A stretch of 32,000 nt of DNA, taken from the NCBI GenBank assembly GCA_041659405.1, contig JBAZYK010000004.1, positions 1-32,000 of the forward strand, given 5' to 3'. This document shows, piece by piece, positions 18,959 to 30,904 of the stretch; position 1 is the stretch's first letter; every line of letters starts with the position of its first letter. The translations under genes were made by a program, and so were the position numbers. The stretch comes from Candidatus Altimarinota bacterium (GTDB lineage Bacteria; Patescibacteriota; Gracilibacteria; UBA1369). The notes beneath the pieces were generated by a model. It was not told where the DNA came from. It did no database searches and saw only the letters and a program-made list of their open reading frames with translations.

Positions 18959-20698
18959 ATGGCTATCAAGATTTTTTCCTGTATTAATCAAGGGTTGGAA
19001 GGCAAATTAGTTGAAGTTGAAGCGGATATCCTACAGGGACTTTCTGCTTTTTCTATTGTAGGCCTTGGCGATATGGCGGTTCAAGAAGCCAAAGAACGCA
19101 TCAGGTCAGCAATAAAAAACAGCGGATTTAACTATCCACAAACCAAGAAAGTTATTAATCTTGCGCCTGCGCACGTGCGTAAACATGGGCCGCAATTTGA
19201 TTTGCCCATGGCGATTGGCCTGCTGGCAGCCTCAAAACAAATTCCCGAAAATATTTTGCAGGAAATGCATGGTCTTTTGATTGTAGGAGAATTGGCTTTA
19301 GATGGAGCAGTTCGACCAATAAATGGGATTTTAACCATGGCGATTTTTGCTAAAAAAAACGGCTGGTCAAAAATCATTATCCCTAAAGAAAATGTCGCGG
19401 AAGCATCGCTGGTTAGTGGCCTGGAAATTATTCCATTAAGTCATTTAAACCAAATACGGGATTTGGATTCCGCCAAAAATATTTTCAACAGTGCGACAGT
19501 TTTTAATATTTCGGAGCAGGAATTTAGTCAGGAACAAAGTGGCGGAAATGGAAACGGCTCTCACGAGCCATTTTTAGGGCAAGAATCTGTGCGTGCGCAC
19601 AGATTGAATCCAGACACCTTCACCGATTTTTCCGATATTGTCGGGCAGGAGATTGCCAAAAGAGCGCTCACTATTAGTGCGGCAGGCAAGCACCATTGTC
19701 TTCTAATCGGGCCGCCGGGCGTGGGCAAAACCTTACTTGCAAAAGCTTTTCCGGGCATTTTACCGCCACTTTCAGAAGGCGAAATGTTGGAAGTGATGCA
19801 GATTTATTCCAGTGCCGGACTTTTGCAACACGCACAAAATTCACAAAAAAGTGTGCTCATGACGCAAAGGCCTTTTAGGCAGATTCATTCAAGTTCTTCA
19901 TTGTTGGCCTTAACCGGCGGAGGAATCCAATTAAAACCCGGTGAAATTTCACTCGCTCATCATGGAGTTTTATTTTTGGATGAAATCGCCGAGTTTCCAC
20001 GTTCGCATCTTGAATCGCTGCGACAACCATTGGAAGAAAAGGAAATTTACGTATCGCGCTCCTCCGGAACGGTTAAGTATCCAGCCAATTTTACGCTTAT
20101 TGCAGGCATGAACCCCTGCCCCTGCGGCTACTATGGTGATCCTGAGAAAAGCTGTATTTGTCCGGCAAATCAGGTAATTCGCTATCAAAAAAAACTTTCC
20201 GGACCACTGCGGGATCGAATTGATTTGGTAATAGAAGTTCCTCGGCAGTCCATCTCGAAATTTCAGGAAGCGGATAATGTTGAAACAAAAAATGCTCAAA
20301 GTTTATCTCAAAATTCGGCCGCAATTAAAGAGAAAATTATCAACGCTCGGCTTATTCAAGCCAAAAGATTCAGTGCAGATCCAAATGAGCTCTTCGATCC
20401 GCGCCAACAGTCCACCTCCACTTCATCTCCCAATCCACACTTCAACTCAAACGGTGAAGTTCCTTCTAGCAGCCGCACCAATAGCGAAATGACTCCTCCG
20501 GAAATAAAAAAATATTGTCCCATTAATAAAGAATGTCAGGATTTATTAAAGCTGGCTAACGAAAAATTCAATTTTTCCGGCCGCAATTATCACCAAATAC
20601 TCAAAACCGCCCGCACAATCGCGGACCTGGAAAATCACGAAAACATTCAACTGGAAGACCTAAGTGAAGCACTGCAGCTAAGGCACCGCAACCGCTAA
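18959..20698 (+). CDS. comM: YifB/ComM family Mg-chelatase-like AAA+ protein
   Basis: Lon-protease-like N-terminal domain (QFDLPMAIGLLAAS), Walker A GPPGVGKTLLAKA, VLFLDEIAEF, and the zinc motif CPCGYYGDPEKSCIC. 579 aa, with linker and C-terminal insertions. Confidence 0.9.
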   Translation: MAIKIFSCINQGLEGKLVEVEADILQGLSAFSIVGLGDMAVQEAKERIRSAIKNSGFNYPQTKKVINLAPAHVRKHGPQFDLPMAIGLLAASKQIPENILQEMHGLLIVGELALDGAVRPINGILTMAIFAKKNGWSKIIIPKENVAEASLVSGLEIIPLSHLNQIRDLDSAKNIFNSATVFNISEQEFSQEQSGGNGNGSHEPFLGQESVRAHRLNPDTFTDFSDIVGQEIAKRALTISAAGKHHCLLIGPPGVGKTLLAKAFPGILPPLSEGEMLEVMQIYSSAGLLQHAQNSQKSVLMTQRPFRQIHSSSSLLALTGGGIQLKPGEISLAHHGVLFLDEIAEFPRSHLESLRQPLEEKEIYVSRSSGTVKYPANFTLIAGMNPCPCGYYGDPEKSCICPANQVIRYQKKLSGPLRDRIDLVIEVPRQSISKFQEADNVETKNAQSLSQNSAAIKEKIINARLIQAKRFSADPNELFDPRQQSTSTSSPNPHFNSNGEVPSSSRTNSEMTPPEIKKYCPINKECQDLLKLANEKFNFSGRNYHQILKTARTIADLENHENIQLEDLSEALQLRHRNR

Positions 20699-23231: not shown

Positions 23232-23416
23232 TTGAATTCAATATGATGAGAACGACATTTTCATGAGCAAACTATGCGATCTAAAAGTTACGCGAACTTC
23301 ATTGGCATAGTCGCGAATCTTTTAATTGAAAATACATGCCAGGCATTAAATTTTTCTAAACCGAATATGAAAAATAAATAAAATTTATCGGTTAGGCATG
23401 GAAAAATTTTGTAACG

Positions 23417-23512
23417 AATCATGTAATATCTCATCATACAATGAGGAAAAAATCGCGTAATATTACATCATAAAATGAGGAGCAAAATCATGTAATACTA
23501 CGTCACGAAATT
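23417..23512. repeat. About 2.7 tandem copies of a 34-35-bp unit, plus GTAATATTAC palindromes
   Basis: Units start at 23417 (AATCATGTAATATCTCATCATACAATGAGGAAAA), 23451 (AATCGCGTAATATTACATCATAAAATGAGGAGCAA) and 23486 (AATCATGTAATACTACGTCACG...). GTAATATTAC lies at 23457-23466, and a perfect 14-bp palindrome GTGTAATATTACAC lies just downstream at 23559-23572. Confidence 0.75.
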
Positions 23513-23873
23513 GCTGGATCGCAACGGTCGTTTTTGGTCTATTTATAGCGCTAAACCGGTGTAATATTACACTGCACTTTTCGGCTAATTTCAAGATGAA
23601 AAATTCGATTTTTTGCACTGCATTTGCTAGAGTTTTGGTGAACATGGATGTGGAAGAAAATATGTTCCGGCAATCTTCCTAAAAAGATTGTCACCCACTG
23701 GACGAACAATCTTCGCATCCGTTAATAATATTTTTTTGATCGGCTTTTCACGGGAAGTCCCAGCGGAAAAGTCGTAGAATACCCCTTTGGTTATTGACGC
23801 TCATCGCCTGGATGAGCAGTAATGTTTGGCCTTGTTCAAGCGACATTACGCCTATTCTTTAACCGATTTTTTT

Positions 23874-24941
23874 ATGATCGCAGAAAATAAAAATTCACCA
23901 AACGGGCTGGACAGAGAACAATTGGATTTCACCAAAATTGACGACGTGCAATTGTTTGCAATGTGCAAAAGATTTGGAGAGCAAGCCAGAATCTGGCGGC
24001 AGAAATTTGCGGGTCTGTTGCCAGAAGTGCTCAAAAGACGCTTGTACGAGCGCAAAGGTTTCGAATCAATCTTCGTATTTGCAAAAAAACTGGCAGGCAT
24101 GAGCGAAGAACAAGTTCGTCGCGTGCTCAATTTGGAGCAAAAATTTGAAGATAAACCGGTTCTTAAAAATTTATTATTGAATGGCGAAATCAGCGCAAAT
24201 AAACTCGCAAGAATCGCTTCAATTGCAACACCGGAAAATCAGGAATTCTTGGCGAATCAAAGCAAAATACTTTCGAATCGTGCACTTGAGACTTTGGTGA
24301 AAGATGAAAAATTCGCCCAAGAAACACTAAATCGCGACTTGCAAAACTTACCCGACCCAAAGAGTCAAAACGGCTCACAAGAGCCATTATTTGAACAGAA
24401 ATCTGTGCACGTGCACACAAATTCAACAGGTATTTTTGAAGACGTCAAACTGCTCCAAAAATTTTCTCCGGAACTTAAAACAAAACTAAAAGAGCTCGAT
24501 GAAAAAGGTCTCGACATCAACCAAATTCTGCTCGAACTTCTGCAAAAACGCGATGAAGAAATCGCAATGGAAAAAGAACAACTCGGTGAAGCTATAGTCG
24601 CAAAACAGCTAGCTGAAGAGGCTTTGGCCAAGCAAGCGGAAGATCAGGCTGCCAACGCCCAGGGAAATATTGTGAAAAAATCCATCGAACTTTCTGCAAA
24701 AAAGCCATCCAGCTACATCAACGTGGCAACAAAAAATCTCCTCAAAAAAGAATTTGGTGATAAATGTTCAATTCCCGGTTGCAACAATCTTGCAAAACCG
24801 ACTCATCACACGCAAAGATTTGGCCTAAGCCATAATAACGATCCTCGTTTTCTGGCTCCGGTCTGTGAACAACATCACGAAATTGCGCATTCCATCGACC
24901 AAAAATATCAATACAGACGTGCCAGGGCTATCGAGCTGTAG
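23874..24941 (+). CDS. HNH endonuclease with a DUF222-like helical N-terminal region
   Basis: C-terminal CSIPGCNNLAKPTHHTQRFGLSHNNDPRFLAPVCEQHHEIAH (CxxC...HH...N...CxxHH). The ATG at 23874 is preferred over the TTG at 23826. Confidence 0.8.
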   Translation: MIAENKNSPNGLDREQLDFTKIDDVQLFAMCKRFGEQARIWRQKFAGLLPEVLKRRLYERKGFESIFVFAKKLAGMSEEQVRRVLNLEQKFEDKPVLKNLLLNGEISANKLARIASIATPENQEFLANQSKILSNRALETLVKDEKFAQETLNRDLQNLPDPKSQNGSQEPLFEQKSVHVHTNSTGIFEDVKLLQKFSPELKTKLKELDEKGLDINQILLELLQKRDEEIAMEKEQLGEAIVAKQLAEEALAKQAEDQAANAQGNIVKKSIELSAKKPSSYINVATKNLLKKEFGDKCSIPGCNNLAKPTHHTQRFGLSHNNDPRFLAPVCEQHHEIAHSIDQKYQYRRARAIEL

Positions 24942-25319
24942 GACCCCACCAAAAAAATCATTTTAGTTTTTGCTAAAATTTGCGCAGCCCGCACTTGCCT
25001 GCCGAGCCTTTGTCACAGCGCATAAGCCATAGTAGCCGCATGTCATCCGCTGGGATCACGTGTGCCCCCGCCCTTATCCCGACTATTCACCCCACCCTTC
25101 GCACCTCGCCCGCGCACCAAAAAGGCCCTCTGCATTGGCACTTTGTTGTTCCCCTGCAGAAGACCTTATTGGAAGTTTTTCTTTCCCGCTTAAGCTTTTA
25201 CTTACGCGGACCATTTATAAGTTTATGTGCACCTCTTTCCATTTTCGCGGAGCTTTATGTGCCAGTAGGCCAAATCTTTTTGCTGACCCACGGCCCCATG
25301 CCGGCGCGCCCCTGCCCCT
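24942..25319. other. Orphan non-coding spacer with strong C-skew and high GC between convergent genes; candidate minus-strand G-rich transcript or G-quadruplex motif
   Basis: No credible ORF. Plus-strand C-tracts at 25065-25069, 25071-25073, 25078-25080, 25090-25093 and 25095-25097, with more runs at 25300-25318. At 378 bp it is far longer than typical spacers in this window. Confidence 0.3.
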
Positions 25320-26855
25320 TTATTTCTTTGCCACCCTCTTTTTTCTCTTCATAATCTTGCCTGCTACAAACGATCCAAACAGGACTAATCCAATTTCCGG
25401 ACCGGTAGCTGGCAAAGTAAATGTAGTCACAACACCCTGGCTTTCATTGCCGGTTTTGTCGCGAGCGGCCAATTTAAACCAGTATTTTACCTTTGGTAAG
25501 ATGTTTGTTACATCAAAAGTTTTTGCATCCGGGCTAACCAAAATTCCTTTGCCATAAGCCACGCCATCGGTGCTCATATAAAGAACATAACTGGCCAAAT
25601 CACCAAGAGTATTTGCGCTGCCTTTCCAAGATAGTGTGACAACCAATTTCTTCAGCATTTCCACCAATAAATTAGTTACATCTTCCGGAGCGGTTGTGTC
25701 TGCGCCTTGTGCATTAACTCCGGCAGCAGTTGTACTTCCCGTAAACTCGGCAGCATTTGAAGTCAAATCAAGCTTGTTACCATCTTTATCCTTAACATCA
25801 ATCGCCATAAGGCTGTATTTTACGGCATTTTGAGCCGCAGTTGTCAGAGTCGCAGTTGTTAAATCGGCGCTCAAATCAACCTTACTTATATCCAAAGTAT
25901 TTTCAGTTTTTTGCTTTTCGGTAATAATAAAATTTTCACGTGGATCAGTATTTAAAACCACCGGTTTAGAGAAAACAACCTGTAAATGTGTTGAATCCTG
26001 GGCGGTTACAGTGCTCACTTTAAGGGCATCTGCAGCCGGATGCGCAACTTCTTGAGTAACCGGTTCGGCACCACTTCCTGTAAATAAAGCTGTATCGGAA
26101 GTCCCGCTAATGATTGGATTTCCGGCAATATCCTTAATGGTACTGGAAGCCGTTAATACATAAGCAGTAGTTGCAGTTTGATTATCGGTTGTTAATAAAA
26201 CGGTTTTATTTAACGCGTCATTGCTGTCTAAAACCGCATCGGTAACATTCAAAGCCACCGAAGTCGCATCTTCTTTAATTCCAAATGCACTTTCCGGATG
26301 AGTTGCAGGAACCTGAACTGCTTCCGAGAAAACCACAGAAACATGCGCTTTATCCACCGCTACCGCCTTTGCAACTTTTGGAGCAACCGCATCTGGTAAA
26401 GCTACGACCGCACTTGGAGTCGCGCTGCCTTCCAAACTATAACTGTTACTTTCGTTGCCGGCTGCGTCGTAAGCTGTTACGGAAAAGTAATAGGTTGTAC
26501 CATTTTTTAAGGTCTTAACCTGATAAGTGATTACGTTTTTAACATCAACCGGTCCATATGTATAAGAATCGCCATCACCTTTTACGGGCTTTAAACCATA
26601 ATAAACCTTATATCCGCTCACTCCAACATTGTCTGTAGCCACGTCCCAGGTCAATGTGGCCATGGAATCTCCGGCAACAGCTTTCACATTTTCCACATCG
26701 GATGGAACCTGTGTATCTGCCACCGCCACATTTTTGTCGGGGACAATATTGGTTGCATGTCCAACCGGCATAAATGCCAAAAGCAGCAACACTCCAAGTG
26801 GAGCGATTGTAGAAAACAAGTGTTTACCAACATTTAAAAGTGTCTTTTTTTTCAT
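25320..26855 (-). CDS. Secreted surface protein with fibronectin-III/Ig-like repeats and a C-terminal LPXTG-type sorting signal
   Basis: Signal peptide MKKKTLLNVGKHLFSTIAPLGVLLLLAF. FN3-like TWDVATDNVGVSGYKVYYG and LSWKGSANTLGDLASYVLYMS. LPATG (25401-25415) is followed by a hydrophobic stretch and KRKKRVAKK. Confidence 0.8.
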   Translation of the reverse strand: MKKKTLLNVGKHLFSTIAPLGVLLLLAFMPVGHATNIVPDKNVAVADTQVPSDVENVKAVAGDSMATLTWDVATDNVGVSGYKVYYGLKPVKGDGDSYTYGPVDVKNVITYQVKTLKNGTTYYFSVTAYDAAGNESNSYSLEGSATPSAVVALPDAVAPKVAKAVAVDKAHVSVVFSEAVQVPATHPESAFGIKEDATSVALNVTDAVLDSNDALNKTVLLTTDNQTATTAYVLTASSTIKDIAGNPIISGTSDTALFTGSGAEPVTQEVAHPAADALKVSTVTAQDSTHLQVVFSKPVVLNTDPRENFIITEKQKTENTLDISKVDLSADLTTATLTTAAQNAVKYSLMAIDVKDKDGNKLDLTSNAAEFTGSTTAAGVNAQGADTTAPEDVTNLLVEMLKKLVVTLSWKGSANTLGDLASYVLYMSTDGVAYGKGILVSPDAKTFDVTNILPKVKYWFKLAARDKTGNESQGVVTTFTLPATGPEIGLVLFGSFVAGKIMKRKKRVAKK

Positions 26856-29875: not shown

Positions 29876-29932
29876 GGACGCGCGCAGCCCTTGACGTTAG
29901 AAAAATACCTGACGGATTTGAATGTCCGGGCA

Positions 29933-30118
29933 GAGATTTGCAGCACATTATTTACACACAAGCAAAGTTATTGCATCCACTTGTGCACGTGCACAGATTT
30001 GCAGCCAAATAATGGCTACCGCGAGCCGTTTGATCGTAAAAAATAGGCGGGCGTACAAAAAGACTTGCGCAACATTTTTTACTTTCCCCACGCACGAAGT
30101 GCTTATTTTTTCTGCGAG
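29933..30118. repeat. Multi-hairpin repeat element, copy A (core palindrome TGTGCACGTGCACA at 29982-29995)
   Basis: 29947-30017 matches 30565-30635 at 68 of 71 positions. Weaker similarity resumes at 30091-30118 versus 30706-30728. Confidence 0.85.
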
Positions 30119-30526
30119 CTGACCGAGCTCCCCAGCCTGGTTTTTAGCAAAAAAATCGTATCACTGCGTAGTTTGGCTTTCACCCAGTCTTTCTGCTTTT
30201 CATCAAGTATCTCCCCCATTCCGGCCAGAATGCCCCGATCGCCAAGTTTTTCAAGTGACTTTATGCATTTTTTAAGAAAACTTTCGGTCATCATCCCAGT
30301 CCTGTCTAAAATGATTTTCTGATTGATTGGCCTTAAAATTTTTGAACGAATATGTTTGACCATCACAGACAATATTTTTAGTCTGATAAGAAGCGACAAA
30401 AATATTACCATAATATTGAAAAATTATGCCTTGGCGTATCATAATAAAAGCCAAATATAAGAAAAAACCTAACCTTTGACTCAAATTATAACAATAAATT
30501 GCCAGACCATTGCCCCGATCAGCCAT
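30103..30526 (-). pseudogene. Two overlapping small ORFs in different frames (about 56 aa, 30272-30442; about 63 aa, 30103-30294): a small-gene pair or a frameshifted remnant
   Basis: ORF-track entries 30272..30526 and 30103..30411 overlap out of frame. No domain was recognised. The locus is bracketed by repeat copies A and B. Confidence 0.25.
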
Positions 30527-30550
30527 TCGGCGGAGGAATCAGCGGACACA

Positions 30551-30728
30551 AGAATTTGCACAATATTATTTACACACAAGCAAAGTTATTGCATTCACTT
30601 GTGCACGTGCACAGATTTACAGCCAAATAACGGCTTGCGCAAGCCAATTCCATTTTTAAAATCGTCATTGGAAGAGCGGTGACTTTACACTGCAATTCCC
30701 TAAATTACGCCAAGTGCTTTTCTCGCAT
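30551..30728. repeat. Multi-hairpin repeat element, copy B (core palindrome at 30600-30613)
   Basis: Direct repeat of copy A, 618 bp downstream and in the same orientation. Confidence 0.85.
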
Positions 30729-30904
30729 ATACAAAAAATCATTCTAAAAATTGTCATGAGCAAAATGAGGAAATCTAAATTTTGGGTCTTGTGGGTCCCA
30801 AAAATTGGATTTCCGATTAACGCGAATGATAATTTTTAGAATTCACTATAGGGAAAAAGTTCCCCAAAAGAAAAAACCGACAGGTTTTGTCTTTTGATTT
30901 GCTT

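Follow-up and report, generated by a model that had tools for sequence, protein, structure and literature searches.

A palindromic module written in frame into the linker of an HNH-type nuclease gene co-varies with the encoded protein and is a putative cis-acting site of that nuclease

The window analysed in this work is a stretch of 32,000 nucleotides (nt) (contig C4:1-32000) from the 1.5-Mb, 21-contig, 98.5%-complete genome (G000) of a Candidatus Altimarinota bacterium, and our subject is a short palindromic module that lies in frame within a gene for a predicted HNH-type nuclease and recurs further along the window as two solo copies (A and B). The module comprises 53 nt (24365-24417) and consists of a GGCT-N6-AGCC inverted repeat (IR1), an A/T spacer and the palindrome TGTGCACGTGCACA. 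The features that are central to our analyses, with the evidence for each in brackets, are as follows.

23874-24941, plus strand: coding sequence of the 355-amino acid (aa) nuclease, with an N-terminal ParB/Noc-like helical domain, a disordered linker, a long helix and a C-terminal HNH-type domain (open reading frame [ORF], homologues, invariant residues, AlphaFold2 [AF2] model)
23919-24353, plus strand: region coding for the N-terminal DNA-binding-like domain, residues 16-160 (AF2 domain model, Foldseek, mutual-information and tree tests)
24120-24122 (R83), 24210-24212 (R113) and 24276-24281 (N135-R136), plus strand: codons of the palindrome-tracking residues (mutual-information and tree tests)
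24741-24938, plus strand: region coding for the HNH-type zinc-finger nuclease domain, residues ~290-355 (invariant Cys/His columns, model)
24365-24420, plus strand: module, with the in-frame reading SQNGSQEPLFEQKSVHVHT (residues 164-182), in the sole disordered stretch of the protein (pattern, repeat search, predicted local distance difference test [pLDDT], family motif)
24372-24385, no strand assigned: IR1, constant inverted repeat GGCT-N6-AGCC, which is TGGCT/AGCCA in most relatives (frozen synonymous sites)
24386-24403, no strand assigned: A/T-rich spacer ATTATTTGAACAGAAATC, with a T-tract after IR1 and a conserved AAATC before the palindrome (sequence comparison)
24404-24417, no strand assigned: perfect 14-base pair (bp) palindrome TGTGCACGTGCACA, putative docking site of the protein's own N-terminal domain (homologue palindromes, covariation)
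29980-30033, minus strand: copy A, a solo module (IR1 30014-30027, palindrome 29982-29995) with an in-frame stop, not readable as protein (pattern, repeat search)
30598-30652, minus strand: copy B, a solo module (IR1 30632-30645, palindrome 30600-30613) (pattern, repeat search)

The nuclease gene starts at the ATG at 23874 and stands alone, as the original prediction had stated, between noncoding flanks of 642 bp (23232-23873) and 378 bp (24942-25319), which correspond to the ~640 and ~380 bp given there and contain no credible ORF. A protein search has identified 612 homologues in Peregrinibacteria/Gracilibacteria, all of them unnamed or annotated as "hypothetical protein", and the Pfam annotation field is empty for all 120 homologues among the matches listed. 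An alignment of 119 homologues has invariant residues at C298, C303, H311, H312, C331, H334 and H335 and almost invariant ones at H339 and D342 (family motif C-x4-C...HH...C-x2-HH), and the C-terminus of the AF2 model forms two strands (310-312 and 327-329) followed by a helix (332-354). The earlier label "DUF222/HNH" is retained in its second half only, because of the invariant Cys/His motif and the predicted beta-beta-alpha (strand-strand-helix) fold and not as a library assignment: the protein has no match in Pfam at E<10, including DUF222 (PF02720) and HNH (PF01844 and its relatives), and none in NCBIfam or PADLOC even at loose thresholds, and a profile sequence search of the PDB returned nothing relevant. 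The full name is a resemblance, not a database assignment. Nuclease-related fold matches of the full-length model are weak and consist of IscB chains only (probability 0.06-0.23). This model has a pLDDT of 88, and its only low-confidence stretch (residues ~160-190, pLDDT 50-63 over 161-190) is the linker that holds the module. The genome carries 12 full-length members of the family in all, with three close paralogues of the present gene (~70% aa identity) and eight distant ones (28-30%), and the repeated unit common to paralogues extends from ~23442 to ~24917.

The reverse-strand sequence of 24365-24417 is identical to that originally quoted, and the claimed recurrence of the module at copies A and B is borne out: the pattern GATTT-N6-AAATAAYGGCT-N6-AGCC is present at 24372-24403 (minus strand), 29996-30027 (plus strand) and 30614-30645 (plus strand), and matches in 0 of 100 shuffles. 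A repeat search aligned 24368-24417 with 29982-30031 in copy A (82% over 50 nt) and the nuclease gene segment with 30600-30635 in copy B (83% over 36 nt). All four close copies of the gene have the module at the same place, where it reads N-G-x-Q-E/K-P-L-F-x-x-K-S-V-H-V-H-T, and the distant paralogue C1_141 retains IR1 (TGGCT-TATTTG-AGCCA) upstream of its own, different palindrome.

That the coding sequence carries an element acting at the level of nucleic acid, as had been proposed, is supported by comparisons across the family. In the alignment of 119 the linker keeps the motif NG[LSF]x[EK]P[LK]Fxx[KE]S-X1X2X3X4-T throughout the family, and in the DNA of 80 homologous loci (84 genes) a perfect palindrome of 10-24 bp is found at the linker position in 77 of the 84 genes, with differing sequences (e.g., TGTGCACGTGCACA, AAAGTCTGCCCGGGCAGACTTT, TCTGCGCGCGCAGA, GTCTGTACGTACAGAC and TGTTCACGTGAACA). 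The X residues vary solely as reverse-complement codon pairs. The inner pair belongs to one of six types in 184 of 202 proteins (viz. HV 65, PG 65, RA 37, YV 8, RT 6 and SG 3), and the outer pair is VH, LQ or VN in 159 of the 202 (V..H, GTG/CAC, 72; L..Q, CTG/CAG, 68; V..N, GTT/AAC, 19). The Watson-Crick fraction of the palindrome is 0.82, compared with a mean of 0.63 and a maximum of 0.66 in shuffles, with 2-3 pair types per position. The two central pairs, which would be free to vary if they formed a hairpin loop, are also complementary (91% and 96%), and mismatches are of the G-T and of the A-C type with about the same frequency, which favours neither strand.

Synonymous sites were evaluated by comparing the share of a codon at the module site with its share in the rest of the same genes. 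In the IR1 region, GGC is used in 58 of 58 cases (34% elsewhere), AAG in 31 of 34 (19%), GAG in 25 of 28 (27%), TTR for Leu in 47 of 47 (39%) and CCA for Pro in 35 of 44 (28%); also frozen are CTG for Leu (36/36, 14% elsewhere), CCC for Pro (32/32) and GGG for Gly (32/33). Because these synonymous positions are frozen, IR1 and the palindrome are constrained as nucleotides. The two parts differ in covariation. The GGCT/AGCC repeat shows none (Watson-Crick fraction 0.708 observed vs. 0.714 shuffled), and the hint of covariation that had been drawn from pair five of the GGCTN/NAGCC stem is lost across the family, since the pairs among 69 members (TA 26, TG 25, CA 10, CG 4) are those of independence. 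Pairing of ATTT with AAAT in the spacer is weak and marginally above shuffles (0.454 vs. 0.417).

The palindrome, in addition, tracks a few residues of the protein encoded around it. Mutual information between the palindrome centre and residue 135 reaches 1.45 of a possible 1.54 bits, and that with residue 136 is 0.97 bits. The centre code is simple: HV (ACGT) occurs with N135 (36) or with C, T or S, PG (CCGG) with K (61) or R (4), and RA (GCGC) with Q (34 of 37). The type of the palindrome arm is related to residue 83 (0.75 bits; R for TGTGC and TGTTC, L for TCTGC) and to residue 113 (0.50 bits; K solely with TGTTC), and the remaining protein columns, the palindrome-encoding residues excepted, give at most 0.36 bits. 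On a tree built without the linker and without columns 83, 113, 135 and 136, the centre type changes at least 49 times. Phylogenetically independent pairs change in the same way in 14-15 of 17 cases, and in the opposite way in none, for PG with K135 (p ~1e-4), in 16 of 19 for RA with Q135 (p 3e-5), in ~10 of 20 for HV with N135 (p 0.002) and in 8 of 8 for VN with K113 (p 0.008); the signal for LQ with L83 is weak (p ~0.06). Among distant paralogues (28-30% identity), the arms of which are quite different, K135 accompanies CCCGGG in three (AAAGTCCCCCGGGGGACTTT in two and CCGTCCCGGGACGG in one) and N135 accompanies the ACGT-centred GGGACGTCCC in another. These sequence comparisons indicate a strong statistical link between the palindrome centre and the protein. 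What distinguishes proteins of the ParB/Noc type, viz. a cognate palindrome of 14-16 bp with a sequence that depends on few residues, is seen here in statistical terms.

The tracking residues lie in the N-terminal domain, which when modelled alone is all-helical (pLDDT 95). In a Foldseek search with this domain the top 9 PDB matches are all ParB, Spo0J or Noc proteins, several of which have been solved in complex with their DNA sites (probability 0.75-1.00, template-modelling [TM] score 0.42-0.50, ~100 columns; E 0.2-1, none reaching 0.001), and the full-length model gives the same outcome. The ParB models PF17762 (HTH_ParB) and PF02195 (ParB_N) are absent from the Pfam scan of the nuclease, and the whole genome has no match to either at E<=0.01. 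The modelled likeness of the N-terminal domain to the ParB/Noc fold is suggestive. As a separate observation, the N-terminal domains of these nucleases are the sole predicted ParB/Noc-like folds that we have seen in this genome.

In the genome as a whole, TGTGC-N4-GCACA occurs at 28 sites, compared with ~0.8 expected, and AAATC stands on one side of nearly every one. The centres are ACGT (9), GCGC (7), CCGG (5) and GTGC/GCAC (5); residue 135 is N in all four close nuclease copies. An occurrence in a cobalamin adenosyltransferase-like gene (C9:35889) lacks AAATC and is native conserved sequence, and we have set it aside as the expected chance occurrence. A profile search has identified ~12 full modules in the genome, together with shorter copies having AAATC and the palindrome alone. 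The solo copies resemble the gene from about the GGCT repeat to the far edge of the palindrome and no further, and no orphan fragments of the N-terminal or HNH domains were found in the genome beside the 12 full-length paralogues (tblastn, E<=10). Most solo copies are located in spacers, several of them just 2-30 nt past a stop codon between convergent genes. At C4:96507, C1:224794, C1:155236 and C16:10887 the palindrome comes 2-27 nt after the stop and is followed by GATTT(T), mostly between convergent genes. At C1:231728, C1:234165-234204 and C4:125026, TGTGC-N4-GCACA lies within members of another repeat family (…GAGTTCCGTTATTGTGCGCCATTACGCTGTTATTGCGCAC…).

The arm type of the dispersed sites follows that of the resident genes: there are 28 TGTGC and 0 TCTGC sites in the present genome, and 15 TCTGC and 0 TGTGC sites in the relative G021. 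TGTGC-type sites are present in 7 of 40 relatives, and a strict TCTGC-type full-module pattern gives 6 matches in the 40, at least 4 of which are inside HNH genes; the burst of solo full modules may thus be particular to the present genome. In a second nuclease subfamily the palindrome is GTCCCCCGGGGGAC, which occurs 8 times (2 in genes, 6 solo), and the sequence that its solo copies have in common with their gene takes in ~65 nt upstream and ~25 nt downstream of the palindrome. At C1:101900-104900 (locus L186:6400-9400), three ~1-kb PIN-toxin cassettes form a tandem array with a solo GTCCCCCGGGGGAC module in each repeat unit (C1:102236, 103228 and 104208), and its module-cassette-module layout is like that of copies A and B in the window. 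The relative G030, from another family of the same order, has 17 ATCTGTGCACGTGCACA sites, many of them within 150 nt of a contig start, and ~39 nuclease matches; its assembly is broken by the ATCTGTGCACGTGCACA repeat or by the genes that carry it.

Some solo copies are located in frame within housekeeping genes, one of them in the window.

19549-19605, plus strand: comM/yifB linker, solo in-frame module (NGSHEPFLGQESVRAHR; palindrome arms 19588-19601) (HNH orientation and phase)
comM: peptide ESVRAHR; the segment is absent from 16 other-genus orthologues, and the same-genus orthologue is without the palindrome
murB (C9:71449-72576): peptide QSVPGHS; the insert is absent from five relatives, including one of the same genus
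glpD (contig C1): peptide KSVPGHR; the 29-aa insert is absent from the same-genus genome
HAD-family hydrolase (contig C1): peptide ESVRAHT; the 62-aa insert is absent from the same-genus genome

Because relatives are without them, these in-frame copies are, by comparison of orthologues, insertions. All four have the orientation and codon phase of the nuclease linker, for which the chance of four out of four in one of six readings is ~1/1,300, or ~1/250 if only the four readings that we judged by inspection of the module sequence to be open are counted. At the same site in the HAD hydrolase of another genus there is a decayed module with a CCGG centre. A "STLPGQ" insert in the glpD of the same-genus genome G001 was considered as another palindrome and rejected, its DNA not being palindromic.

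The surroundings of the nuclease gene and of copies A and B contain four further features of relevance.

23442-23873, plus strand: 5' leader, DNA-level match to paralogues C4:59843-60288 and C1:166313-166626, part of the repeated gene unit (blastn)
23232-25112, plus strand: approximate extent of the island missing from the relative G010 (locus comparison)
29876-30899, no strand assigned: block of 1,025 bp separating argS from tRNA-Cys, with copies A and B inside it (12 nt instead in same-genus G001)
29885-29939, minus strand: decayed second palindrome and ~30 nt of HNH coding sequence 3' of the palindrome, next to copy A (local alignment)

The suggestion that the block 23232-25320 resembles a mobile or homing island is consistent with its distribution: in G010 the spacer between the MBL and FN3 genes is ~270 bp long and without the nuclease gene, compared with 2,089 bp here, and no clear target palindrome is found at this empty site. 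An empty-site argument from G001 was discarded, as its spacer has a gap of 10 N and says nothing about the left junction; in G001 the nuclease orthologue adjoins a gene different from the neighbours of any copy here. The G001 MBL-FN3 spacer is homologous to 25113-25200, and because of this alignment part of the 378-bp flank is ancestral. The spacer 24942-25319 is GC-rich and composite, with only ~24942-25112 having come with the island, and has no Rfam match; a hairpin AAAAAGGCC...GAAGACCTT within 25113-25200 resembles a terminator of the FN3 surface-protein gene. The 5' leader is 74-86% identical in DNA to two paralogues and contains GTAATATTAC-type palindromes. In the argS-tRNA-Cys block, 29885-29939 aligns with 24399-24448 (score 37, shuffle maximum 26), and because this alignment extends 3' of the palindrome, part of the block descends from a nuclease gene. 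Elsewhere in the window, a 77-nt internally palindromic repeat (GGAAAGTATAACTTTC...GAAGTTATACTTTCC) at 1086-1162 and 2720-2796 (88% identical), with a partial inverted copy at 2656-2682, is unrelated to the module.

We interpret the module, with moderate confidence and on comparative grounds, as a two-part cis-acting DNA site of the nuclease encoded around it, the palindrome being the putative site of the protein's own N-terminal domain. The palindrome would be bound by the ParB/Noc-like helix-turn-helix domain, probably as a dimer, and IR1 (TGGCT-N6-AGCCA), ~20 nt upstream, would provide a second, family-wide signal at which the HNH domain or a partner may act. Both would be written in frame into the disordered linker, leaving the nucleotides constrained and the peptide free to vary; the linker is a suitable carrier because its peptide sequence hardly matters. 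With gene and site forming one physical unit, the two could diversify jointly and give rise to many specificities. Short segments of the linker, with the palindrome at their centre, would also have been copied elsewhere, into spacers, to the borders of toxin cassettes and into in-frame loops of housekeeping proteins. For the origin of the solo copies we favour repair of a nick or break templated on the nuclease gene, which would copy the palindrome and little flanking sequence; it fits because flanking gene sequence is found beside copy A and in the second subfamily.

Several observations weigh against this interpretation. Residue 135 is only ~130 nt from the palindrome, and recombination blocks could contribute to their association; simple linkage of the two is argued against because the distant paralogues obey the same centre code. 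The likeness to the ParB/Noc fold is weak by E-value (0.2-1), and the Pfam models for ParB, DUF222 and HNH are unmatched. IR1 is without covariation and without a known binding partner. There are 17 solo TGTGC-type sites with GCGC, CCGG or GTGC centres and no resident nuclease with the matching residue 135. Lastly, the nuclease keeps an intact putative target inside its own gene, which this interpretation does not account for.

Of the alternatives, one regards the module as a miniature palindromic repeat in its own right, of the repetitive extragenic palindromic (REP) or miniature inverted-repeat transposable element (MITE) kind or like the Rickettsia palindromic elements (RPEs), which lodges in permissive places, the nuclease linker being one of these or the nuclease being its mobilising enzyme. 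The ~20 dispersed solo copies in a 1.5-Mb genome, mostly in spacers near gene ends, the four in-frame copies in unrelated housekeeping genes that relatives lack, and the patchy distribution among related genomes would all be expected of such an element. A passive lodger would not, however, occupy one and the same place in the linker of ~200 homologues, with identities as low as 28%, and co-vary with residues of its host. A second copy is found within 1.5 kb at only 1 of 48 HNH loci, so that the modules are not element termini in the manner of RAYT/REP, and LQ-type solo full modules are, by the strict pattern, all but missing from the 40 relatives. We have downgraded a purely RPE- or REP-like mobile repeat on account of the family-wide position and the co-variation with the protein, and consider this alternative improbable. 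That the palindrome is the site of another host factor, such as a restriction-modification enzyme or a global regulator, and is merely tolerated by the nuclease gene would agree with its being a short GC-rich palindrome with a GTGCAC or CACGTG core that is dispersed and often intergenic. We give this very little credence, as the palindrome differs between paralogues of one genome and tracks residues of the surrounding protein, and the arm type of a genome matches its own HNH genes. Equally little can be said for the view that the solo copies, A and B included, are mere decaying pieces of dead nuclease paralogues. The original prediction had left room for such fragments, and to this extent it was right: a genuine gene fragment extending ~30 nt past the palindrome (29885-29939) adjoins copy A, and solo copies of the second subfamily share flanking sequence on both sides with their gene (~65 nt and ~25 nt). 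As ordinary pseudogene pieces, however, they would not all be the same discrete linker segment with a similarity that stops at the palindrome, isolated remnants of the N-terminal or HNH domain would not be missing (tblastn, E<=10), and four copies would not be in-frame inserts in intact housekeeping genes.

The original prediction also envisaged a structured RNA antisense to the nuclease mRNA, and more broadly the module could act as RNA, be it as a structured antisense or 3' untranslated region RNA, as back-to-back intrinsic terminators or as an attenuator restricting the expression of the nuclease domain. Both strands of the copy in the nuclease gene form two hairpins that are better than those of shuffles (z -2.9 and -3.8), and a loose terminator scan passes both, one per strand (IR1 with the T-tract in the sense direction, the palindrome with GATTT in the antisense direction); the position of several solo copies 2-30 nt after the stops of convergent genes points the same way. 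Against this, copy A folds no better than shuffles (z -0.6 and -1.1) and favours another pairing, and the terminator scan is not enriched overall (13 sites vs. 9.2 +/- 3.0 in shuffles). The module has no match in Rfam, either at the gathering thresholds or at E<=1, IR1 is without covariation, and the equal frequencies of G-T and A-C mismatches favour no strand. Where the palindrome would need a loop, 91-96% of sequences are still self-complementary, and a hairpin offers no reason to track residue 135. The antisense RNA is hence not upheld, and a function as RNA in any of these forms seems to us decidedly improbable. It is possible that some solo copies have been co-opted as terminators, and the palindromes that come after stop codons may be instances of this.

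Known systems come closest to the module in different respects: ParB-parS and Noc with its Noc-binding sites (NBS) in recognition, the DUF222-HNH/REP13E12 repeats in gene type, the RPEs in in-frame spread, and REP/RAYT and homing endonucleases as selfish elements. As regards ParB and Noc, the best fold matches of the N-terminal domain are to these proteins (with weak E-values), the site is likewise a perfect palindrome of at least 14 bp with a CACGTG or CCCGGG core, few residues set its specificity (in the present case statistically), and it lies inside the gene, as parS lies in or near parB. The family variant TGTTCACGTGAACA is close to parS. Unlike ParB and Noc, the nuclease is unmatched by the Pfam ParB models, aligns by the DNA-binding part alone with no CTPase domain seen, and is fused to an HNH-type domain; the family is multi-copy (with 12 paralogues in the present genome and as many as ~39 matches in a relative), and it has a second constant inverted repeat and a site in frame in the linker. 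The RPEs are also short palindromic repeats that occur in frame in unrelated genes, are read through as extra peptide and are absent from orthologues. They differ in that the present repeat makes up the linker segment of a nuclease gene and changes together with that nuclease; RPEs are longer than the module and are not known to have a cognate protein. With REP/REPIN-RAYT the module shares dispersed short palindromes tied to one protein family and solo copies that are mostly intergenic near gene ends, and it differs in having HNH-type rather than Y1 (HUH) motifs, a palindrome inside the gene with a flanking copy at 1 of 48 loci, and copy numbers in the tens and not in the hundreds. Free-standing HNH homing endonucleases are similar in their selfish-looking nuclease genes, in an island that is missing from a relative and in being non-syntenic with the sister copy, but here the recognition-type site is intact inside the gene and not split by the insertion.

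The DUF222-HNH/REP13E12 sequences of mycobacteria and other actinobacteria are multi-copy, of unknown function and variable in position, and have been treated as repeats or mobile elements (PMC10589994). The present family resembles them in its helical N-terminal domain, C-terminal HNH nuclease, multiple copies and variable positions; membership is not established, the Pfam DUF222 and HNH models being unmatched at E<10. In full-text searches we have found no description of an internal, co-evolving palindrome in DUF222-HNH/REP13E12 or in such nuclease genes. Fusions between the ParB CTPase fold and HNH domains are listed as novel, without sites, in a preprint of 2025 (10.1101/2025.10.10.680097).

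A more far-reaching possibility, which we regard as speculative and on the whole unlikely, is that nuclease and module constitute a self-propagating system with a reprogrammable address (the palindrome) and a constant action site (GGCT/AGCC), which seeds and recombines portable sites chromosome-wide; such sites would serve as borders for the shuffling of small gene cassettes, toxin-antitoxin units among them, in the manner of a nuclease-driven counterpart of integrons, and would also be placed in frame in essential genes. The nucleases might also have taken over a chromosomal site-marking role in this genome, which is without a detectable canonical ParB.

If our interpretation is correct, the residue 135 code (N for ACGT, K for CCGG and Q for GCGC, with residues 83 and 113 related to the arms) would represent a small, naturally diversified and programmable DNA-binding module. 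The linker is an unusual case of double coding, in which a disordered peptide carries a DNA signal that is preserved by reverse-complement codon pairs, and nuclease-linked palindromic modules are a new source of the puzzling insertions in housekeeping proteins of ultra-small bacteria (viz. those encoded by comM, murB, glpD and the HAD hydrolase gene). The module likewise provides a handle on a multi-copy nuclease family of unknown function that is abundant in the Candidate Phyla Radiation and resembles the unexplained 13E12/DUF222 repeats.

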